Positions 8,029 through 64,000 of a DNA stretch of 64,000 bases are shown in pieces. The notes below the pieces were generated by a model, which did no database searches, had not been told where the DNA came from, and was given only the letters and a program-made list of their open reading frames with translations. Both the position numbers and the translations under genes were made by a program. This DNA is from a virus (lineage: Duplodnaviria > Heunggongvirae > Uroviricota > Caudoviricetes): IMG/VR virus record IMGVR_UViG_2734482597_000010. The stretch is one strand, 5' to 3'. Within the stretch, counting starts at the first letter, position 1; each line of letters starts with the position of its first letter.

Positions 8029-8775
8029 ATGAAAAATATTGCGACAGGCGACGTTCTTGAACGTATCCGCAGACTGGCCCCGTCACATGTAACCGCGCCA
8101 TTCAAGACGGTAGCGGAGTGGCGCGAGTGGCAACTTTCCGAAGGCCAGAAACGTTGTGAGGAGATCAACCGTCAGAATCGTCAGTTGCGGGTGGAAAAAA
8201 TTCTGAATCGCTCTGGCATCCAGCCATTGCACCGCAAATGCTCGTTTTCGAATTACCAGGTGCAGAACGAAGCGCAGCGATACGCGTTGAGTCAGGCGAA
8301 ATCCATCGCTGATGAACTGATGANNNNNNNNNNNNNNNNNNNNNNNNNNNNNNNNNNNNNNNNNNNNNNNNNNNNNNNNNNNNNNNNNNNNNNNNNNNNN
8401 NNNNNNNNNNNNNNNNNNNNNNNNNNNNNNNNNNNNNNNNNNNNNNNNNNNNNNNNNNNNNNNNNNNNNNNNNNNNNNNNNNNNNNNNNNNNNNNNNNNN
8501 NNNNNNNNNNNNNNNNNNNNNNNNNNNNNNNNNNNNNNNNNNNNNNNNNNNNNNNNNNNNNNNNNNNNNNNNNGGTGGTGCTGCACCAGATTGTTGATCG
8601 CCGGACAGCGTCGATGCGCAGCGTGGGGATGCTGACAAACCTGAACTATGAGGCCATGAAAACATTGCTCGGCGAGCGGATTATGGATCGCATGACCATG
8701 AACGGCGGGCGATGGGTGAATTTTAACTGGGAGAGCTGGCGTCCGAATGTCGTCCAGCCAGGAATTGAGAAGTAA
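8029..8775 (+). CDS. ydaV: YdaV DnaC-like helicase loader (interrupted by N run 8324-8573)
   Basis: 248-codon [37 protein letters not shown]...; P-gene position; central 250 nt are N. Confidence 0.8.
8324..8573. other. assembly gap (250 N) inside ydaV
   Basis: Run of N. Confidence 1.
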
Positions 8776-9991: not shown

Positions 9992-10129
9992 ACGTTACTA
10001 GATCAAAGAGCATTAGTTCATATGTAAATTGACATTTTTCTGGCACAGGGGAGAGCTAGCGTGGTTGTCCGCTTTGTGCCAATAGCGGACATTGCTGGCT
10101 CATGGTATGTTAGTTTAAGGAGGCAGGTT

Positions 10130-11152
10130 ATGCCCTGTATTTCGCTGTGGTATAATAGTTGCGCAATTGATACAAGGGAGCGTTACATCGTGAAAATTGT
10201 TTTCGAGGTTAATGGAAAGAAAGTTCCACTAAAATCTTTAAAATACATAAGCAAAAAAGATCAACTCGAAGTAATGAAAAACTGGTTCTTTGAAAACTTT
10301 GAAGATCCGGCAAATGCTTGTCCGTATGAAAGTAGAGAAGGTGGCTATGCTTACATATATGGCGGGCCGTATGATGCGAGCGAAGAACTACAATCCATCT
10401 TCGGTCAATATGTTAAATCTGAGTATATTGAGGAATTAGTAGATGAATTACAAACACAATGTTTTGACTGGTCTGGAAACTCAAATAATATAGATGATTG
10501 GTACGATGATGATATCTACGACGCTGTAACGTCTTCCGGTAATCCGTATTTAAAATTCATTGATAATATCGATAAAATAAAAAAACTTGCAAAAGATAAA
10601 ACTGAACAACAGCAAAAAAACCACTTGCTTAGTTTGCTCTACACGAATGTTATTACAGCTTTGGAAACGCTTTATGTTGAGCTATTCATTAATTCTATAG
10701 AGAAAGATGATGTCTACATAGCCAATTGTATAGAAAAAGGTAAGACTGAATTTAAAGTAAGCAAAGATATTGCTGCGTTGCCTTTCAAGGGTGAACCCAT
10801 CGAGAAAATTAGGGGAGAGCTAATCAGGTCAATCAAGGAACACTTGATCAGTGCAAGCTGGCATAGCACTAAAAAGGTAATCGACCGCTATGAAGCTACA
10901 TTCGATATAAAAGTACAAAAAGACTGTCCGATAGAAGCTATTGAATTGGCAACCCTCAATCGAAATCACTTAGTGCATCGTGGTGGAAAGGATAAAGAAG
11001 GGAACCTCGTAGTGATTACAGACCAGGATCTTGAAACGCTGATTGAAAATGCATCGAACCTGGCAATTATGCTCTACAACAGTTTAAATGTAGCAACGAA
11101 TAAAACCACCATTTTGCAACCAGATGACAAACCGTTCATTCATGAATTTTAA
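10130..11152 (+). CDS. hypothetical protein with C-terminal R-N-x-x-x-H (HEPN-like) motif; AT-rich cargo gene A
   Basis: ATG at 10130 preceded by AAGGAGG (7-nt spacer); alternative start GTG 10190. Motif RNHLVH is encoded at 10961-10978, in frame. Visibly AT-rich codon usage. No family confidently recognised. Confidence 0.6.
   Translation: MPCISLWYNSCAIDTRERYIVKIVFEVNGKKVPLKSLKYISKKDQLEVMKNWFFENFEDPANACPYESREGGYAYIYGGPYDASEELQSIFGQYVKSEYIEELVDELQTQCFDWSGNSNNIDDWYDDDIYDAVTSSGNPYLKFIDNIDKIKKLAKDKTEQQQKNHLLSLLYTNVITALETLYVELFINSIEKDDVYIANCIEKGKTEFKVSKDIAALPFKGEPIEKIRGELIRSIKEHLISASWHSTKKVIDRYEATFDIKVQKDCPIEAIELATLNRNHLVHRGGKDKEGNLVVITDQDLETLIENASNLAIMLYNSLNVATNKTTILQPDDKPFIHEF
10148..10156 (+). 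promoter_or_regulatory. candidate extended -10 promoter element TGgTATAAT
   Basis: Sequence ctgTGgTATAATag at 10148-10156; lies upstream of GTG 10190 (AAGGGAG RBS) but inside the ORF if the start is ATG 10130. Confidence 0.35.
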
Positions 11153-11167
11153 TAGCGCAGGTCATAC

Positions 11168-12169
11168 ATGGATATTCGCACACGAAAGACAAAATTTTTA
11201 GAGTCGTTAGATTCAACTGAAGTGATACGCAAAGCAGTAAGTCTCGCTATAGATTGCATTATTGATAATCATAATAGTAATGAAGATACCCCCTTAGTTA
11301 TTACCAGCTATGATGATCTCTGTAGAATCCAGGTGCTAAATTATGTACAGGAGTTTTGCGAAGCTGCATTCCCTGATATGGATGAATATTACTTTAGTCC
11401 TAACATACTTCGCATCAACGGCAAGACTAGTGAAGAAGCTTGTATTAACTTAATTAAACTCTTAAGAAGTACAAAAGGCATGCTATTCTGGTCCGATGCC
11501 CCATCGTGGTTCGCTAGCCTCCCCGACGGATTATTCCATGTTGTTAACATTGATCAAAAAATCGTTACTCGCGGCCTTAATAAGAAAAACTCTAAGCCGA
11601 CAATAATCAATAAAGATTACAGTGTAGATACACTACTATCAGAGCTATTTTTGAATGGCGCACACATGGAGCAACCCAACGTACACAACGTTTCTGAGGG
11701 AAACATGAAGTTCTATGATGAATGCCATGCTGGATTAATCAGACCAATACCCGCTCCAATAGGCGCGTCATACGATGAAGAGATCACAATTAATTCTCCA
11801 GATTGGCAAAAGCTCGCGTGTGTAGCTTTACGCCGCTATCAGTCGAAGGAATGTCATGACGGAATGCAATGGGATACAACCGATCATGGTTGGACTGATG
11901 TAATCGCGTATCCATTCGTCGAAGAAATACAATCAATGGATAATAGTGGTTATCGACAATGTTTAGTTGGGCTGGTCACAATAAACAATTCAAATGCAAA
12001 TTCTCCGTACCTATCTACCGTTTGGATACATCCATTTTATCGCAGGAGAGGGTTATTAAGTAAGTTATGGCCAAAATTACAAGAGTTATATGGAAGTAAC
12101 TTCGAAATTGAGCGACCTAATGAAAATATGAAAGCATTTCTGAAAAGTGCGAAACACGCAGATTACTAA
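11168..12169 (+). CDS. hypothetical protein, cargo gene B (333 aa; C-terminal region weakly GNAT-like)
   Basis: ORF 16 nt downstream of gene A, same strand, AT-rich; C-terminal ..VWIHPFYRRRGLLSKLWPKLQELYG.. loosely resembles acetyltransferase motif A; not a confident call. Confidence 0.55.
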   Translation: MDIRTRKTKFLESLDSTEVIRKAVSLAIDCIIDNHNSNEDTPLVITSYDDLCRIQVLNYVQEFCEAAFPDMDEYYFSPNILRINGKTSEEACINLIKLLRSTKGMLFWSDAPSWFASLPDGLFHVVNIDQKIVTRGLNKKNSKPTIINKDYSVDTLLSELFLNGAHMEQPNVHNVSEGNMKFYDECHAGLIRPIPAPIGASYDEEITINSPDWQKLACVALRRYQSKECHDGMQWDTTDHGWTDVIAYPFVEEIQSMDNSGYRQCLVGLVTINNSNANSPYLSTVWIHPFYRRRGLLSKLWPKLQELYGSNFEIERPNENMKAFLKSAKHADY

Positions 12170-12722
12170 TTTATGAATCAGTCTGTGGAGTTAGGGTTGG
12201 TGTGAACAAGTAGGGTAAGAGCCTCAACGTGATGCTATGCCGACCTGCTCCCTGAGAATTCACACAGAAGGCTGCTAGCAATGTCTGCAGATCGCTCAAA
12301 GCGGACTAAAATGTTGGCTTGTTTCTGACTTAGAGCATTTAAGGAAGTGCTGGTGGTGACTGGTTGTTGTGTTCCATTTCTACAGAATAAAATCACAGAA
12401 ACTATACCCAATAGTTGTATTGAATCACTGACGAGACAGCCTCATATTTATCAGGACTGGTGTGCGTCTAATACAGGGGGTTGTCGTGCTGGTTCTCAAA
12501 TGTGCGCTGGCTATTGCGGCTGTAATGGCAATTTATTGTCTTGCTGTTGTTCTTATGGAGCGGCTTTCTGATTGATTACATACTGGCTAGAAAAAAGGTG
12601 TTACCTTGGTTTATCTTTGTCCGGCAAGGTGCGCTCATTAATCTTAAGTAAATTTATTGCTCAAGTATTCAGATTACTTCTTATGGTTGAAGTCTCCTGT
12701 CAATGTAGAACCAATATATTTA

Positions 12723-12760
12723 CAAAAATGAGACCCGTCGGGGATAGCCCTGCCGGGTCT
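12723..12760 (-). terminator. intrinsic terminator downstream of the yeaR-like gene
   Basis: Stem AGACCCG (12731-12737) / CGGGTCT (12754-12760); on the minus strand it is followed by CATTTTTGTA. Confidence 0.5.
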
Positions 12761-12789
12761 GACTGTTAAAGCATTTTTAATATGATCAT

Positions 12790-13128
12790 CTATTTTTTGG
12801 TGCTATAGACTTTTTCGCCCGAAAAGTCTGGAGCGACCCAAAAGTTAATATTAAACTGAGCATCATCGCTTAGTTCAACACGGTGCCAGTATTGTGGTGG
12901 GCTTGTTGCAAAAGCGCCAGCATTAATGACTACTTTTATCTCCGGTTCAGTAGCATTCTCATCAGTAAAACCATAATATGTTACAGTGCCTTCCATTACG
13001 CACAACTGCCCAAAAACACCTGCTGCTGTATTATGATGTGTTAATAACGCTGAAGGTACGTTCTCTTTTGTGAAGAACGGAGTTGAGCGTTTGATTACCC
13101 AATCTTTAGGAATTCTCTTGTGTGTCAT
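12790..13128 (-). CDS. YeaR-like DUF1971 protein (112 aa)
   Basis: MTHKRIPKDWVIKRSTPFFTKENVP...VMEGTVTYYGFTDENATEPE...AGAFATSPPQYWHRVE...FNINFWVAP aligns by eye with E. coli YeaR as I recall it; GAGGAGG RBS 5 nt upstream of ATG at 13126-13128. Confidence 0.7.
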   Translation of the reverse strand: MTHKRIPKDWVIKRSTPFFTKENVPSALLTHHNTAAGVFGQLCVMEGTVTYYGFTDENATEPEIKVVINAGAFATSPPQYWHRVELSDDAQFNINFWVAPDFSGEKVYSTKK

Positions 13129-13941
13129 AACCACCTCCTCCAAAACATGCATTAAAAATGCATCTTTTGGAGGGTTATGTCAAGCTGTTATGAAACACAT
13201 AATTGATATGTTGATTAGAGGAGAAGATAGAATAAATATGGTTGTTTTTCGTATAACTATTTGTTTTACTTTTAGTTTATGCATTCTGTGTGTTAGGAAT
13301 AAGTTATTAAAGTTTAATCAAAAAATCTCGATGTAGTCCACATAGATTACTGTTACTGAACCTTATTGTGTGTATTAGTTGTGTTCTGAAATTTCAGCTT
13401 AATTATTTATGATGTATTTTTTAACGATAAATATTTTCCCAGGATACCTTTACTGTGTATATAAATAAATTATATACGCATAAATAATGTAAAGGCGTCC
13501 TTTTAGATATATCTTATCAAATGTTAATGACTTGAGTGGGAAATATGATTCCAGCAACTTATCATGTGGCTACTTTATAAAAATAATGCCCATATAAAAC
13601 AACAAGCGAAAAGGATTACGGATAAAAAAGGAGCGAGATGTGCGAACTTGTTATTTTCCATGTTTAACCACCTTAAATAATTGATGATGACGGGATGATT
13701 GCATCTGTAATGCTTTTATTGAAATGTTATGATAAAAAAGAACTTTTGCATAACATTAAAATGTAATTTATCTAATCGTTTTTAATAATAAGTGTCGTAT
13801 TTCTATCCTTGTACCAGCTATTTGATATGTAGTGTTTGTTCATGCTATGTGGGGCTTTACACCATAGCCAGTTTATTTATACTTTATTCGTCAGCCTGAA
13901 CAACTGGCATCTGCTGCGCTGCGCCATCGAGAGATTGAGAA

Positions 13942-14541
13942 ATGGCGCATATACAACTGGTCAAACAAACCTCTTCTGGTTTACTTCTCCCGGCGACGCC
14001 GGAGAGTTGCGATTTTCTGCATCAAATCAAAATAGGTGAGTGGATACACGCAGACTTTAAGCGTGTGCGTAACTACGCATTCCACAAGCGTTTTTTCAAA
14101 CTCCTGCAACTGGGATTCGATTACTGGACTCCGGTCGGTGGGGCGATCACGCCTCGCGAACGAGAACTGCTGTCTGGTTTCGTTGATTACCTGTGCGAAT
14201 CAGTTGGTCGGGAACACACGCCAGCCCTGAGTGATGCCGCAGAGCAATACCTTAACACCGTTGCGACTCGTAGAACCCGGGATACGGCGTTGCTAAAGTC
14301 GTTTGAGGCTTTCCGCGAGTGGGTAACCATTCAGGCCGGATTTTACACCGAGCATATTTATCCGGACGGTAGCCGTGGGCGTCGGGCAAAATCCATCGCT
14401 TTTGCGAATATGGACGAAGTCGAGTTTCAGCAGGTTTATAAATCTGTACTGAATGTGCTGTGGAACTGGATTCTGTTCCGTAAATTCTCCTCTCAGGAGG
14501 AAGTTGAAAATGTGGCCGCACAACTACTGGAGTTTGCGTAA
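13942..14541 (+). CDS. nin-region phage protein (199 aa), family uncertain
   Basis: ORF MAHIQLVKQTSSGLLLPATPESCDFLHQIKIGEW...; sits where lambdoid phages carry nin genes. Confidence 0.5.
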   Translation: MAHIQLVKQTSSGLLLPATPESCDFLHQIKIGEWIHADFKRVRNYAFHKRFFKLLQLGFDYWTPVGGAITPRERELLSGFVDYLCESVGREHTPALSDAAEQYLNTVATRRTRDTALLKSFEAFREWVTIQAGFYTEHIYPDGSRGRRAKSIAFANMDEVEFQQVYKSVLNVLWNWILFRKFSSQEEVENVAAQLLEFA

Positions 14542-15823: not shown

Positions 15824-16355
15824 GGGCTGGTTTATTGTATGCCAAATGATTATTAAAAAGGTTGTGTTAATAACAAGATCCGAAATAATATGCCTGCATA
15901 TTTTTATCTTGCTTATATTCTGCATATTGTGCATAGCAGGCTCATCCCTGCAATCAAAACTGTATGATGAGTATTTTTTGTTTTCCTTTTTTCCAGTCAT
16001 CTGATGATGACCTGCTTCTTTTTAATCCGGATCGACATCAGTTTTTTAAGATAATTCCTGCGAGTTATATGCATAAATGCCACAAACTCCGCATTTTATG
16101 TGGTTGGGAGTTGCCGGGCGCGCAGTGAGTTTGCTAAGAAAACTCCTGCATGGTGAATCCCCCTGTGCGGTGGGGTGATACCATTAACCTTTTCTGTCGC
16201 CGACAGGTATCACGAACATTTTGTTCACCGGGAGGCACCCGGCACCATGCACTTCAATAGATTCTCTCCACATTATGGATATTCTTTCAGAATATCCCAC
16301 GCAGACTTTGTGTAAATGTTAACAAATGTGCGTTTTATTTGATCTGATTCGCTGT

Positions 16356-16414: not shown

Positions 16415-16843
16415 ATGGGTTTTCGTAGCGCATCAATTCTTACGTTGATTATTAGTGGGATTATTATCGGGTGCACTGATGCTGTATCGACAAATTATCA
16501 TGACCGTACATCATATTACTCCGATAAAGCAATAGAGACACAGTATGTGAGTTCATCTGAACGTACTTCTGATGTTAGTGAGGATATCCGTCTGTATGCC
16601 CATCAAATCAAGAGCGCCATCGAAAAACAGTTCGGGGATGCGAGTAAGTATTCAGGAAAAGAGTGTACACTGAGAATGCATATGGCCCCGAATGGCCTTC
16701 TACTGGAGGTTAAAAGAGAAAGTGGAGACCTCGATTTATGTCGTGAAGCGATGAATGCGATAAAGAATGCTGATATACCTGCCCCCCCTTCGCCGGAAGT
16801 ATATAAAGTATTTCAAAATGGGGTGCTGGATTTTAAACCCTGA
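16415..16843 (+). CDS. outer-membrane lipoprotein with TolA C-terminal (domain III)-like domain (142 aa)
   Basis: Signal peptide with lipobox IIGC and Thr at +2; C-terminal ~90 aa (...HQIKSAIEKQFGDASKYSGKECTLRMHMAPNGLLLEVKRESGDLDLCREAMNAIKNADIPAPPSPEVYKVFQNGVLDFKP) aligns with my recollection of the E. coli TolA C-terminus (...IKSAIESKF...GKTCTLRIKLAPDGMLLDIKPEGGDPALC...IPKPPSQAVYEVFKNAPLDFKP). Confidence 0.7.
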   Translation: MGFRSASILTLIISGIIIGCTDAVSTNYHDRTSYYSDKAIETQYVSSSERTSDVSEDIRLYAHQIKSAIEKQFGDASKYSGKECTLRMHMAPNGLLLEVKRESGDLDLCREAMNAIKNADIPAPPSPEVYKVFQNGVLDFKP

Positions 16844-16993: not shown

Positions 16994-17389
16994 GTGGGAT
17001 TAAAGAAAATCGTTATGTTGACTTTTTGGGTCGGTTTTGTTGCGGGATGCACACCTTTACACCCTTCAGATTGCCACAAAACTACTGCTACAGGTAGTTG
17101 CAGTTCAGGACGCTGGGATGATCAGGATGAATGGGGGGCGCAAGCGCGGGGAATCAGAGCTGCAATTAATGCCAAACTTGATGAGCCGCATAACTGGAAA
17201 GGGAAAAAATGCAGGTTGCATATGGAATTCTCTCAGGATGGCACGGCGTTAAAAATATCTACCAGTAACGGTGATAAAGCCTATTGCGAAGCGATAAAGT
17301 CCGCAGCTCATAAAGCCAAATTTCCGGCCTTCAACAATCCGGAAGTCTACAGAGATTTTCAGAAATCTGGCTTTGACATGCGAGGTTAG
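16994..17389 (+). CDS. second lipoprotein, divergent paralogue of the TolA-domain-III-like protein (131 aa)
   Basis: GTG start with GAGGAG RBS; lipobox VAGC, Thr at +2; shares KxCxLxM...G..L.......GD...C.A...A...A..PA...PEVY..FQ..G.D pattern with the upstream gene. Confidence 0.6.
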   Translation: MGLKKIVMLTFWVGFVAGCTPLHPSDCHKTTATGSCSSGRWDDQDEWGAQARGIRAAINAKLDEPHNWKGKKCRLHMEFSQDGTALKISTSNGDKAYCEAIKSAAHKAKFPAFNNPEVYRDFQKSGFDMRG

Positions 17390-17640: not shown

Positions 17641-17860
17641 ATGAAATCCATGGACAAAATTTCAACAGGCATTGCCTACGGCACCTCCGCAGGCAGTGCT
17701 GGCTACTGGTTTTTACAGTTGCNNNNNNNNNNNNNNNNNNNNNNNNNNNNNNNCTGCAATCGGTGTGCTGGGTAGTCTGGTATTTGGCCTGCTGACGTAC
17801 CTGACAAACCTTTATTTCAAGATTAAAGAAGATAAGCGCAAGGCTGCGAGAGGTGAATAA
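17641..17860 (+). CDS. phage-21-type class II holin (S21/pinholin-like), interrupted by N run 17723-17753
   Basis: [26 protein letters not shown]...[gap]...[34 protein letters not shown]; GGAGGTGA RBS; the frame break is caused by the N run. Confidence 0.8.
17723..17753. other. assembly gap (31 N) inside the holin gene
   Basis: Run of N. Confidence 1.
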
Positions 17861-37909: not shown

Positions 37910-38236
37910 NNNNNNNNNNNNNNNNNNNNNNNNNNNNNNNNNNNNNNNNNNNNNNNNNNNNNNNNNNNNNNNNNNNNNNNNNNNNNNNNNNNNNNNNNNN
38001 NNNNNNNNNNNNNNNNNNNNNNNNNNNNNNNNNNNNNNNNNNNNNNNNNNNNNNNNNNNNNNNNNNNNNNNNNNNNNNNNNNNNNNNNNNNNNNNNNNNN
38101 NNNNNNNNNNNNNNNNNNNNNNNNNNNNNNNNNNNNNNNNNNNNNNNNNNNNNNNNNNNNNNNNNNNNNNNNNNNNNNNNNNNNNNNNNNNNNNNNNNNN
38201 NNNNNNNNNNNNNNNNNNNNNNNNNNNNNNNNNNNN
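37910..38236. other. assembly gap (327 N) across the K/I junction, first copy
   Basis: Run of N. Confidence 1.
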
Positions 38237-55906: not shown

Positions 55907-58900
55907 ATGGGTAAAGGCAGCAGTAAGGGGCATACCCCGCGCGAAGCGAAGGACAACCTGAAGTCCACGCAGCTGCTGAGTGTGATCGATGCCATCAGCG
56001 AAGGGCCGGTTGAAGGTCCGGTGGATGGATTAAAAAGCGTGCTGCTGAACAGTACGCCGGTGCTGGACAGTGAGGGGAATACCAACATCTCCGGCGTCAC
56101 GGTGGTGTTCCGGGCAGGTGAGCAGGAGCAGTCACCGCCGGAGGGATTTGAATCCTCCGGCTCCGAGACGGTGCTGGGTACGGAAGTGAAATATGACACG
56201 CCGATCACCCGGACCATCACGTCGGCAAACATTGACCGACTGCGTTTTACCTTCGGTGTACAGGCACTGGTGGAAACCACCTCAAAGGGAGACAGGAATC
56301 CGTCTGAAGTTCGCCTGCTGGTTCAGATACAGCGTAACGGTGGCTGGGTGACGGAAAAAGACATCACCATTAAGGGCAAAACCACCTCGCAGTATCTGGC
56401 CTCGGTGGTGGTGGATAACCTGCCGCCGCGCCCGTTTAATATCCGGATGCGCAGAATGACGCCGGACAGCACCACAGACCAGCTGCAGAACAAAACGCTC
56501 TGGTCGTCATACACCGAAATCATCGATGTGAAACAGTGCTACCCGAACACGGCACTGGTCGGCGTACAGGTGGATTCGGAGCAGTTCGGCAGCCAGCAGG
56601 TGAGCCGTAATTATCATCTTCGCGGGCGCATTCTGCAGGTGCCGTCGAACTATAATCCGCAGACGCGGCAATACAGCGGTATCTGGGACGGAACGTTAAA
56701 ACCGGCATACAGCAACAACATGGCCTGGTGTCTGTGGGATATGCTGACCCATCCGCGCTATGGCATGGGGAAACGTCTTGGTGCGGCAGATGTGGATAAA
56801 TGGGCGCTGTATGTCATCGGCCAGTACTGTGACCAGTCGGTGCCGGACGGCTTTGGCAGCACGGAGCCGCGCATCACCTGTAATGCCTGGCTGACCACAC
56901 AGCGCAAGGCGTGGGATGTGCTCAGTGATTTCTGCTCGGCGATGCGCTGTATGCCGGTATGGAACGGGCAGACGCTGACGTTCGTGCAGGACCGACAGTC
57001 GGATAAGGTGTGGGCCTATAACCGCAGTAATGTGGTGATGCCGGATGATGGCGCGCCGTTCCGCTACAGTTTCAGCGCCCTGAAAGACCGCCATAATGCC
57101 GTTGAGGTGAACTGGATTGACCCGGATAACGGCTGGGAGACGGCGACAGAGCTTGTGGAGGATACGCAGGCCATTGTCCGTTACGGTCGTAACGTCACGA
57201 AGATGGATGCCTTTGGCTGTACCAGCCGGGGGCAGGCACACCGCGCCGGGCTGTGGCTGATTAAAACGGAACTGCTGGAGACGCAGACCGTGGATTTCAG
57301 CGTGGGTGCTGAAGGGCTTCGTCATGTACCGGGCGATGTCATTGAAATCTGCGATGATGACTATGCCGGTATCCGCACCGGCGGGCGCGTGCTGGCGGTG
57401 AACAGCCAGACCCGGACGCTGACGCTCGACCGTGAAATCACGCTGCCATCCTCCGGCACCACGCTGATAAGCCTGGTTGACGGGCAGGGGAATCCGGTCA
57501 GCGTGGAGGTCCAGTCCGTCACCGACGGCGTGAAGGTAAAAGTGAGCCGTGTTCCTGACGGTGTTGCTGAATACAGCGTGTGGGGGCTGAAGCTGCCGAC
57601 GCTGCACCAGCGATTGTTCCGCTGCGTGAGTANNNNNNNNNNNNNNNNNNNNNNNNNNNNNNNNNNNNNNNNNNNNNNNNNNNNNNNNNNNNNNNNNNNN
57701 NNNNNNNNNNNNNNNNNNNNNNNNNNNNNNNNNNNNNNNNNNNNNNNNNNNNNNNNNNNNNNNNNNNNNNNNNNNNNNNNNNNNNNNNNNNNNNNNNNNN
57801 NNNNNNNNNNNNNNNNNNNNNNNNNNNNNNNNNNNNNNNNNNNNNNNNNNNNNNNNNNNNNNNNNNNNNNNNNNNNNNNNNNNNNNNNNNNNNNNNNNNN
57901 NNNNNNNNNNNNNNNNNNNNNNNNNNNNNNNNNNNNNNNNNNNNNNNNNNNNGCTGACAGTCCGGGCAGTAAATGCGTGGGGGCAGCAGGNNNNNNNNNN
58001 NNNNNNNNNNNNNNNNNNNNNNNNNNNNNNNNNNNNNNNNNNNNNNNNNNNNNNNNNNNNNNNNNNNNNNNNNNNNNNNNNNNNNNNNNNNNNNNNNNNN
58101 NNNNNNNNNNNNNNNNNNNNNNNNNNNNNNNNNNNNNNNNNNNNNNNNNNNNNNNNNNNNNNNNNNNNNNNNNNNNNNNNNNNNNNNNNNNNNNNNNNNN
58201 NNNNNNNNNNNNNNNNNNNNNNNNNNNNNNNNNNNNNNNNTGATTATTACTTTTATATCCGCAGTGTGAACACCGTTGGCAAATCGGCATTCGTGGAGGC
58301 TGTTGGTCAGCCGAGTGATGATGCATCCGGTTATCTGGATTTTTTCAAAGGCGAGATAGGGAAAACCCATCTGGCTCAGGAGCTGTGGACGCAGATTGAT
58401 AACGGTCAGCTTGCGCCTGACCTGGCTGAAATCAGGACGTCCATTACGGATGTCAGCAATGAAATCACGCAGACCGTCAATAAGAAACTGGAAGACCAGA
58501 GTGCGGCAATTCAGCAGATACAGAAGGTTCAGGTTGATACAAATAATAACCTGAACAGCATGTGGGCTGTGAAGCTGCAGCAGATGCAGGACGGACGCCT
58601 TTATATCGCGGGTATTGGTGCCGGTATTGAGAACACCCCTGACGGCATGCAGAGTCAGGTGCTGCTGGCGGCGGACAGGATTGCGATGGTTAATCCTGCG
58701 AATGGCAACACAAAACCGATGTTTGTTGGTCAGGGCGATCAGATATTCATGAACGACGTGTTCCTGAAACGCCTGACGGCCCCCACCATTACCAGCGGTG
58801 GAAATCCATCGGCATTTTCCCTGACTCCGGACGGAAAGCTGACCGCTAAAAATGCGGATATCAGTGGCAGTGTGAATGCGAACGCCGGGACGCTCAACAA

Positions 58901-59460: not shown

Positions 59461-60264
59461 ATGCGTAAAGTTTGTGCAGCCATTTTGTCCGCAGCCATTT
59501 GCCTGGCCGTATCCGGTGCGCCTGCATGGGCGTCTGAACATCAGTCCACGCTGAGCGCGGGGTATCTTCATGCCCGGACCAACGTTCCCGGCAGTGATGA
59601 TCTGAACGGGATTAACGTGAAATACCGTTATGAGTTTACGGATACGCTGGGGCTGGTGACGTCATTCAGCTATGCAGGAGACAAGAATCGCCAGCTGACC
59701 CGTTACAGCGATACCCGCTGGCATGAAGATTCCGTGCGTAACCGCTGGTTCAGCGTGATGGCGGGGCCGTCTGTGCGCGTGAATGAATGGTTCAGCGCGT
59801 ATGCGATGGCGGGTGTGGCTTACAGCCGTGTGTCGACTTTCTCCGGGGATTATCTCCGCGTAACTGACAACAAGGGGAAAACGCACGACGTGCTGACCGG
59901 AAGTGATGACGGTCGCCACAGCAACACGTCTCTGGCGTGGGGAGCTGGCGTGCAGTTTAACCCGACCGAATCCGTGGCCATTGATATTGCTTATGAAGGC
60001 TCCGNNNNNNNNNNNNNNNNNNNNNNNNNNNNNNNNNNNNNNNNNNNNNNNNNNNNNNNNNNNNNNNNNNNNNNNNNNNNNNNNNNNNNNNNNNNNNNNN
60101 NNNNNNNNNNNNNNNNNNNNNNNNNNNNNNNNNNNNNNNNNNNNNNNNNNNNNNNNNNNNNNNNNNNNNNNNNNNNNNNNNNNNNNNNNNNNNNNNNNNN
60201 NNNNNNNNNNNNNNNNNNNNNNNNNNNNNNNNNNNNNNNNNNNNNNNNNNNNNNTCGGTTATAA
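59461..60264 (+). CDS. lom: outer membrane protein Lom (Ail/Lom family); 3' end lies in N run 60005-60254
   Basis: MRKVCAAILSAAICLAVSGAPAWASEHQSTLSAGYLHARTN...; signal peptide; the true stop is probably inside the gap. Confidence 0.8.
   Translation: MRKVCAAILSAAICLAVSGAPAWASEHQSTLSAGYLHARTNVPGSDDLNGINVKYRYEFTDTLGLVTSFSYAGDKNRQLTRYSDTRWHEDSVRNRWFSVMAGPSVRVNEWFSAYAMAGVAYSRVSTFSGDYLRVTDNKGKTHDVLTGSDDGRHSNTSLAWGAGVQFNPTESVAIDIAYEGSXXXXXXXXXXXXXXXXXXXXXXXXXXXXXXXXXXXXXXXXXXXXXXXXXXXXXXXXXXXXXXXXXXXXXXXXXXXXXXXXXXXXRL
60005..60254. other. assembly gap (250 N) at the 3' end of lom
   Basis: Run of N. Confidence 1.
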
Positions 60265-63419: not shown

Positions 63420-64000
63420 TGGCATTCAGAATGAGTGAACAAGCACGGACCATAAAAATTTATAACCTGCTGGCCGGAACTAATGAATTTATTGGTGAAG
63501 GTGACGCATATATTCCGCCTCATACAGGTCTGCCTGCAAACAGTACCGATATTGCACCGCCAGATATTCCGGCTGGTTTCGTGGCTGTTTTCAACAGTGA
63601 TGAGTCATCGTGGCATCTCGTTGAAGATCATCGGGGTAAAACGGTTTATGACGTGGCTTCCGGCGACGCGTTATTTATTTCTGAACTCGGCTCATTACCG
63701 GAAAATGTCACCTGGTTATCCCCGGAAGGGGAGTTTCAGAAGTGGAACGGCACAGCCTGGGTGAAGGATACGGAAGCAGAAAAACTGTTCCGGATCCGGG
63801 AGGCGGAAGAAACAAAAAACAGCCTGATGCAGGTAGCCAGTGAGCATATAGCGCCGCTTCAGGATGCTGTGGATCTGGAGATCGCAACGGAGAAAGAAAC
63901 CTTGTTGCTGGAAGCTTGGAAAAAGTATCGGGTGTTGCTGAACCGTGTTGATACATCAACTGCACCGGATATTGAATGGCCAGTAGCACCTATAGGGTAA
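63419..64000 (+). CDS. tfa: tail fibre assembly protein Tfa (193 aa)
   Basis: [31 protein letters not shown]...; stop TAA is the last codon of the window. Confidence 0.85.

Follow-up and report, generated by a model that had tools for sequence, protein, structure and literature searches.

Why a prophage should carry a single small gene of host type, and what controls that gene, is the question raised by a locus in the IMG/VR virus record IMGVR_UViG_2734482597_000010, of which one strand of 64,000 nucleotides (nt), hereafter the window, was analysed. The gene lies on the minus strand at 12790-13128 and encodes a protein of 112 amino acids (aa) that belongs to the DUF1971 family. A preliminary description of the locus had regarded it as a relative of the nitrosative-stress gene yeaR, carried by the prophage as independently expressed cargo, i.e., as a moron. 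The core of this description holds, and a candidate regulator can now be named. Taken as a whole chain, the locus is probably an NsrR-repressed, nitric-oxide (NO)-inducible moron of a Rac-type lambdoid prophage.

Family and relatives of the encoded protein

The open frame spans 12790-13152 on the minus strand (120 aa from the first ATG in the program-made list of open reading frames, ORFs), and we place the true start at the ATG at 13128, because the orthologues all open with M-S/T-H-x-R-I-P and the RefSeq annotation comprises 339 nt. The resulting protein matches the full 80-position profile of the Pfam model DUF1971 (PF09313) with an E of 2.3e-26 and a score of 92 bits, the gathering cut-off being 23.1, so that the family membership proposed earlier is borne out by its hidden Markov model. 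The AlphaFold model (mean predicted local distance difference test, pLDDT, 80) is all-beta with a small cupin (jelly-roll) beta-barrel fold, and Foldseek places it closest to the PDB entry 3DL3 (template modelling score, TM, 0.91), followed by E. coli YeaR (3BB6, 0.83), 3M70 (0.72) and then metal-dependent cupins.

At the sequence level, the Salmonella protein encoded next to dsbB is 79% identical to the prophage protein over its full length and without gaps. The Salmonella gene stands in the order fadR-nhaB-dsbB-gene-ycgN-ycgM-ycgL-minCDE and, by LT2 locus numbering, we take it to be STM1808. The subgroup to which both proteins belong, with members 73-82% identical to the prophage protein, is tightly conserved in Vibrionaceae, Shewanella and many Enterobacteriaceae, and His31, His32 and His82 are invariant in an alignment of 15 of its members, the numbering being that of the Salmonella protein. 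In a neighbour-joining tree the phage copy falls within the STM1808 group as sister to a Kluyvera/Leclercia clade, with YeaR as a distant outgroup. Assignment of the product to the family and to the STM1808 subgroup is thus near certain, and the coding sequence (12790-13128, minus strand) can be described from Pfam, identity and fold as a small cupin of STM1808 type (DUF1971, TehB/YeaR-like) with conserved His32 and His82. For STM1808 itself, Karlinsey and colleagues reportedly described in 2012 that it binds zinc through His32 and His82, that both residues are needed, and that it has a role in NO resistance and in mouse virulence. The prophage protein, in which both histidines are conserved, may likewise bind zinc.

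The likeness to YeaR emphasised in the preliminary description is real with regard to the residue pattern and the common Pfam family, and the two proteins also share the fold, but the identity is 41% and YeaR falls into a separate clade. A captured or duplicated host yeaR, regulated like yeaR-yoaG through activation by NarL and repression by NsrR, would be expected to look different in several further respects. Sensitive blastn searches with the prophage gene in 5426 complete E. coli genomes never matched yeaR. No yoaG-like ORF lies downstream, where the only minus-strand ORF of at least 20 aa in 12572-12789 has 20 aa, about 150 nt away and past the hairpin described below. Neither NarL heptamers nor a 7-2-7 site occur in the 300 nt upstream, and matches to the FNR, CRP and Fur consensus sequences in the same 300 nt are no better than background (FNR 7/10, Fur 11/19). 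E. coli yeaR is a predicted or known NsrR target (site AAATGGTATTTAAAATGCAAATT, 23.9 bits in K-12 with the matrix introduced below), and it shares a transcript with yoaG and is activated by NarL (Lin et al. 2007), whereas a yoaG partner and NarL heptamers are both missing from the prophage locus. The sequence comparisons therefore refute a yeaR copy, and we give this origin practically no credence.

Tellurite resistance was considered as well, since the PDB entry 3DL3 is named 'TehB', RefSeq uses the name 'TehB family protein', and the NCBIfam TehB model gives a weak match. The match reaches 49 bits against a cut-off of 303, however, and covers only model positions 11-106 of 289, i.e., the N-terminal accessory domain. 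In H. influenzae TehB, this N-terminal domain (3M70, TM 0.72) aligns with DUF1971 over residues 11-110 (E 5e-11) but is fused to an S-adenosylmethionine (SAM)-dependent methyltransferase domain, which is the part responsible for TehB activity and which is absent from the 112-aa protein. The 'TehB' label is misleading for this reason, and a tellurite-resistance protein is very improbable. The 3DL3 protein itself, from Aliivibrio fischeri (structural-genomics target VfR98), is 77-83% identical to the prophage protein (Foldseek; phmmer E 3.5e-59) and superimposes with a root-mean-square deviation of 1.7 Å. We found no published function for it. Its gene differs from the prophage copy in being chromosomal, in lying beside norR-norVW and in having no E. 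coli-type NsrR site. The A. fischeri orthologue is located immediately downstream of norR-norV-norW, and this neighbourhood is an independent genomic link of the protein group to NO detoxification.

Besides Salmonella, the dsbB locus holds an orthologue in Klebsiella, Citrobacter, Raoultella, Yokenella and Phytobacter, while Kluyvera, Leclercia, Pseudescherichia, Silvania and Buttiauxella have it at other loci, adjoined by a deoxynucleoside-kinase-like gene in both Kluyvera loci inspected. In E. coli K-12, umuDC-hlyE lies between dsbB and ycgN, and no DUF1971 gene is present there. The gene of the window is not at the dsbB-ycgN position typical of the STM1808 group; it sits in a Rac-type prophage at ttcA, and therefore represents a horizontally acquired orthologue and not the syntenic one.

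The predicted NsrR operator and promoter

The evidence for the proposed control comes from the region directly upstream of the start codon. We built an NsrR weight matrix from 26 published E. coli CFT073 sites (Table 4, PMC5320621), and it finds a predicted operator of 28.7 bits at 13144-13166 on the minus strand, 15 nt upstream of the ATG. This 11-1-11 inverted repeat (AAGATGCATTTTTAATGCATGTT) is of the NsrR type AAGATGCATTT-N-AAATGCATCTT. Among the published sites only the ytfE operator scores higher (31.9 bits), and 20 of its 23 positions are shared by the predicted operator. Elsewhere in the 64-kb window no site exceeds 14.5 bits, and none of 500 dinucleotide shuffles of the AT-rich spacer upstream of the gene attained 28.7 bits, the best shuffle having 18.8. 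The site list published for CFT073, the strain used for chromatin immunoprecipitation sequencing (ChIP-seq), contains no such site. The search for regulatory sites upstream, which had been suggested with NarL and FNR as further candidates, has thus yielded NsrR but no credible site for the other two.

The operator overlaps a sigma-70 promoter-like sequence (13155-13183, minus strand), in which TTGACA (13178-13183) is separated by 17 nt from CATTTT (13155-13160), so that the -10 hexamer is inside the operator; on the coding strand the layout reads TTGACA-TAACCCTCCAAAAGATG-CATTTT-TAATGCATGTTTTGGAGGAGGTGGTT-ATG. A consensus promoter scan of the minus strand found no promoter; this one was missed because its -10 hexamer matches at only three of six positions. 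The Shine-Dalgarno sequence GGAGGAGG (13134-13141, minus strand) lies 5 nt before the ATG and corresponds to the strong ribosome-binding site (RBS) noted previously, and its GGAG core is found at the matching position in nearly all aligned orthologue promoters.

Conservation of this arrangement was examined in 80 orthologue loci from different species, 50 of them enterobacterial. In 49 of the 50 enterobacterial loci an equivalent NsrR site of 20.7-30.4 bits is located 15-27 nt upstream of the ATG, the one exception being Leclercia adecarboxylata with 12.2 bits, and the rest of each of these loci scores 14.3 bits or less. An alignment of 14 promoters shows one layout throughout, in which a -35 hexamer (TTGACA/TTTACA/TTGACG) is followed after 17 nt by a -10 hexamer (CATTTT/TATTTT/CATATT) that constitutes operator positions 7-12, and then by a GGAG-type RBS. 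The layout of the phage promoter agrees with those of Klebsiella (TTGACG-17-CATATT) and Kluyvera (TTTACA-17-TATTTT). Homology between the phage promoter and those of the Kluyvera group extends to about -75 and then ends, and the moron therefore brought its own native promoter and operator. In Kluyvera, Leclercia, Silvania and Buttiauxella a Fur-box-like sequence is located about 84 nt upstream, just before the -35 hexamer, and matches GATAATGATAATCATTATC at 13-17 of 19 positions, which suggests dual control of the Kluyvera-group orthologues by Fur and NsrR; in the phage copy this sequence has decayed to 11/19.

The closest known system is that of Salmonella STM1808, which published reports place in the Salmonella NsrR regulon and connect with support of systemic infection and virulence (PMC7527575, PMC7082413, PMC6529577). 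Both are single genes with His32 and His82, 79% identity at the protein level, and a -10 hexamer inside an 11-1-11 NsrR operator just before the RBS. STM1808 differs in being a chromosomal gene between dsbB and ycgN and in having its operator 27 nt from the ATG instead of 15, and the prophage copy differs in the lower GC content at third codon positions (GC3, 0.35), in being nearer to the Kluyvera/Leclercia copies, and in an additional palindrome extension. Moreover, NsrR control and a phenotype have been demonstrated for STM1808 and are predicted for the prophage copy. We regard NsrR control of the prophage gene as highly probable.

We propose the following course of events. An STM1808 orthologue was acquired horizontally together with about 80 bp of native promoter, the -10 hexamer being embedded in a near-consensus NsrR operator. 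In the unstressed lysogen, NsrR with its iron-sulfur cluster would occupy the operator, occlude the -10 hexamer and keep the gene off. NO, derived from host immunity or from nitrate/nitrite respiration, would nitrosylate the cluster and thereby release NsrR, whereupon an mRNA with a short leader would be translated efficiently from the strong RBS, and the protein would join the nitrosative-stress response of the lysogen beside the chromosomal paralogues YeaR and TehB. The analysis shows to which family and subgroup the protein belongs, its predicted fold, the sequences of operator and promoter with their conservation, purifying selection and the distribution of the gene; NsrR binding, induction by NO and a benefit for the host are what we infer from the orthologues, and for a measurable benefit to the host we consider the chances to be about even.

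The operator is not the same in all phage copies. Other operator alleles score 27.8, 26.6 and 20.7 bits, and between the window and the commonest allele there are five changes in the operator core of about 35 nt (13140-13175), compared with one in the 339 nt of the gene and none in the 50 nt upstream. The commonest allele also creates a perfect TATAAT. Template switching at the quasi-palindrome or selection on repression strength could explain the variable core, and the alleles may set different levels of repression.

The operator lies in addition within a longer palindrome of 54 nt (13126-13179, minus strand), which was recognised from sequence and RNA folding and reads CATAACC-CTCCAAAA-operator-TTTTGGAG-gaggt-GGTTATG. 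Two pairings make up its outer arms, one of CATAACC with the GGUUAUG that contains the start codon, the other of CCUCCAAAA with UUUUGGAGG, where the RBS is located. Folding of the whole palindrome as RNA gives -26.1 kcal/mol (z -6.3) with the Shine-Dalgarno sequence and the AUG both paired, and the palindromes of two other alleles fold with -22.9 (z -6.5) and -19.7 kcal/mol (z -3.7), while a transcript that begins in the right arm is unstructured. Covariation across 12 distinct phage alleles is sparse, with two double changes, and 191 of 500 shuffles do as well. The extension is not present in the aligned promoters of the chromosomal orthologues. One might read the palindrome as a promoter-specific translation insulator, in which RNA started upstream would lock the Shine-Dalgarno sequence and the AUG (-20 to -26 kcal/mol), so that translation would be confined to mRNA begun at the NsrR-gated promoter, without the left arm; such a device would protect a moron that sits in AT-rich, spuriously transcribed phage DNA. 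We hold this to be a speculative and unlikely role.

Prophage setting, maintenance and competing explanations

With 99.9% identity, the window has its counterpart in E. coli chromosomes, e.g., that of NCTC10444, where it forms an intact Rac-type prophage at ttcA. From the left, the prophage comprises intR-xisR-ralR-recTE-racC-kilR-sieB, the repressor, ydaTUV, DUF1627, DUF977 and cargo; after the cargo follow DUF1367-DUF1364(YbcO)-DUF1133(Q), the lysis genes, trkG, terminase, head and tail. Among the genes of the right arm of the prophage, only that for the DUF1971 protein is on the minus strand, in agreement with the earlier observation that its orientation is opposite to that of the neighbouring phage genes. 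Together with its own promoter and operator, a terminator-like hairpin, a GC content below that of the backbone and a patchy presence, this orientation among plus-strand genes characterises it as a moron. Stress-defence morons of lambdoid prophages are established, e.g., prophage-encoded sodC, which benefits the host, has its own promoter and terminator, lies between phage modules and is expressed in the lysogen, and the view that a stress gene in a prophage is unusual was thus overstated. Compared with the sodC-type morons, the DUF1971 moron concerns another protein and another stress, and it appears to be wired to a host repressor by an imported operator. It would add to two known kinds, the stress-defence moron and the NsrR-regulon gene.

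In 5426 complete E. coli genomes, the gene was detected in 458 (about 8%), always with at least 90% nucleotide identity, and the blastn search found no DNA-level copy other than the prophage copies. Three carrier genomes were studied more closely, and in each the gene is part of a Rac prophage at ttcA. Of 37 IMG/VR matches, 35 have the same neighbour as the window, with the gene divergent from DUF1367-YbcO-Q, and so has one Shigella flexneri genome; the remaining two could not be accepted as other phage lineages and look like chromosomal flanks (dsbB in one, umuC and a SRAP gene in the other). Three siphoviruses of UK origin that were obtained by induction (vB_EcoS-666R9 and two relatives) carry the gene, and gene-carrying phages therefore form virions.

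For its maintenance we examined 40 copies. Apart from that of the window, 35 come from IMG/VR contigs, three from chromosomes of E. coli and Shigella and one from a phage genome, and together they represent eight nucleotide alleles. The gene is intact in all 40, and the ratio of nonsynonymous to synonymous polymorphism (pN/pS) is 0-0.27 against the window allele and 0.09 for the most divergent allele; it also persists in the badly degraded Rac of strain LD39-1. Purifying selection acts on the prophage protein. The gene has a GC content of 0.41 and a GC3 of 0.35, compared with about 0.50 for the backbone, and it is 70-76% identical to the chromosomal copies at the nucleotide level. Because of this low identity and the GC3, the capture is either old or came from an unsampled donor, and a recent capture from a sequenced donor is ruled out, the best chromosomal nucleotide identity being 76%.

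This record of maintenance bears on the possibility that the gene is a silent passenger, whose promoter and operator are relics and which is not expressed in E. coli because of H-NS silencing or the start-codon hairpin. The flank has a GC content of 0.27-0.31, as is typical of an H-NS target, the -10 hexamer is weak, and a strong potential hairpin covers both the AUG and the Shine-Dalgarno sequence, all of which fits such a passenger. After an old capture, however, ORF, RBS, -35 hexamer and operator are still intact in 40 of 40 copies with the low pN/pS values given above, and the gene has survived in LD39-1 in a prophage that lost many other genes. We consider silence of the gene to be improbable.

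It might also be that the gene serves the phage, either because NO-induced transcription running head-on against the early transcript toward Q tunes lysis, or through phage-phage competition. The gene points towards the replication-to-Q transcription unit, with which it converges, and its immediate neighbour is always DUF1367-YbcO-Q; it borders a hotspot that contains defence-like cargo such as IteAS in relatives, and its operator region is far more variable than the gene itself. NO-triggered convergent transcription that modulates read-through to the Q antiterminator, and so couples host NO to the lysis decision, is a possibility in this context. On the other side, PADLOC gave no match. Purifying selection on the protein, together with its identity of about 80% to housekeeping-style orthologues on chromosomes, where the same operator is present, argues that it is the native function of the protein, and not mere transcription, that is kept. 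A service to the phage consequently appears to us as a minor prospect.

Returning to the NsrR-repressed moron, several points weigh against it. Most Vibrionaceae orthologues, two Photobacterium species excepted, have no site that the E. coli matrix can detect. The -10 hexamer CATTTT is weak. With 20.7 bits, the operator of the commonest phage allele is weaker than that of the window, so that repression may not be equally strong in all copies. Should transcription start further upstream, the long palindrome could block translation, and the AT-rich surroundings could be H-NS-silenced irrespective of NsrR. Literature searches yielded no paper on the E. coli prophage gene (WP_000149055), and, with YeaR and TehB already present in lysogens, the gene may bring little additional benefit.

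If the NsrR-repressed moron is true, it would be a clear example of lysogenic conversion by cargo that is itself equipped with a connection to a stress regulon of the host. At the syntenic locus of the K-12 chromosome a gene of STM1808 type is absent, whereas a Rac-type prophage supplies one to about 8% of the complete E. coli genomes and to at least one genome of Shigella flexneri. A strain-variable member would thereby be added to the E. coli NsrR regulon, with relevance to gut inflammation and to urinary-tract niches. Furthermore, with its naturally occurring operator alleles and its easy genetic accessibility, the prophage copy lends itself to work on DUF1971 biochemistry.

Flanking DNA and further features of the window

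Downstream of the gene, the terminator of the preliminary description is found in part. About 30 nt after the stop codon, folding reveals a terminator-like interrupted hairpin with a run of five U (12722-12760, minus strand), in which GACCCG...CGGGTC at 12732-12759 is followed by UCAUUUUUG on the coding strand. The hairpin is interrupted, a scan with a strict terminator consensus gave no minus-strand site, and its fold is ordinary against shuffles (z -1.4). In the 666R9-type sub-lineage it is missing: homology ends at 12793, with different DNA from the stop codon on.

The AT-rich non-coding DNA noted earlier is likewise real (13129-13941, 813 bp, GC 0.31), but in the orientation of the gene it lies upstream and not after it, and only its left half travels with the gene. 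No ORF of more than 38 aa is located wholly inside 13129-13941, the longer listed ORFs overlapping the flanking gene. Rfam returned nothing relevant, either at gathering thresholds on the window or with E up to 1 on 12500-14000, apart from a spurious mir-616 match on the palindrome. The left half (13184-13573), with a GC content of about 0.27 and no ORF of more than 35 aa wholly inside, was seen only in gene-carrying genomes, while 13574-13940 recurs without the gene. The latter is a conserved, unannotated non-coding element, whose counterparts in about 900 further E. coli genomes, all without the DUF1971 gene, are 74-77% identical to it. In the two gene-less genomes inspected, this counterpart is directly upstream of the Q module, which consists of DUF1367-DUF1364-DUF1133 in one genome and of hypothetical-DUF968-Q in the other, and it is preceded either by IteAS defence genes or by a hok gene (hokD). 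Judging from these comparisons, the right half of the spacer belongs to the neighbouring Q module. A promoter-like site (TTTACA-16-TATACT) is present on the plus strand at 13856-13883.

The other side of the gene, from DUF977 to about 12290, is a variable cargo hotspot. In the window, its segment 10090-12290 holds two genes of the low-GC cargo, one at 10061-11152 (363 aa, weak HEPN/RES-NTD1 match, E 2e-4) and one at 11168-12169 (333 aa, weak GNAT match); the same hotspot contains three hypothetical genes in LD39-1, and a KilA-N gene plus hok in strain 50579417. PADLOC matched neither the DUF1971 protein nor this neighbouring cargo. Between hotspot and gene, the segment 12292-12590 includes a hydrophobic ORF of 37 aa on the plus strand (12462-12575) and shares 92% identity with DNA of E. 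coli D1 that immediately precedes a gene annotated as hokD. Phages of the 666R9-type sub-lineage have an annotated Hok/Gef gene that converges on the DUF1971 gene. A type I toxin locus may thus persist in the segment as a remnant or a variant.

Elsewhere, the window has no tRNA genes, and runs of N (1429 bases in total; 8324-8573, 17723-17753, 37910-38236, 57633-57952, 57991-58240 and 60005-60254) do not touch the locus described here. An Rfam IS009 match (218 bits) was obtained near the right end of the window at 63762-63960. Between the Q gene and the lysis cassette, a classic late-moron position, an Rfam match to the small RNA STnc100 (86.6 bits, 16118-16304) precedes a pair of genes that encode proteins with a TolA C-terminal domain (16415-16843 and 16994-17389).

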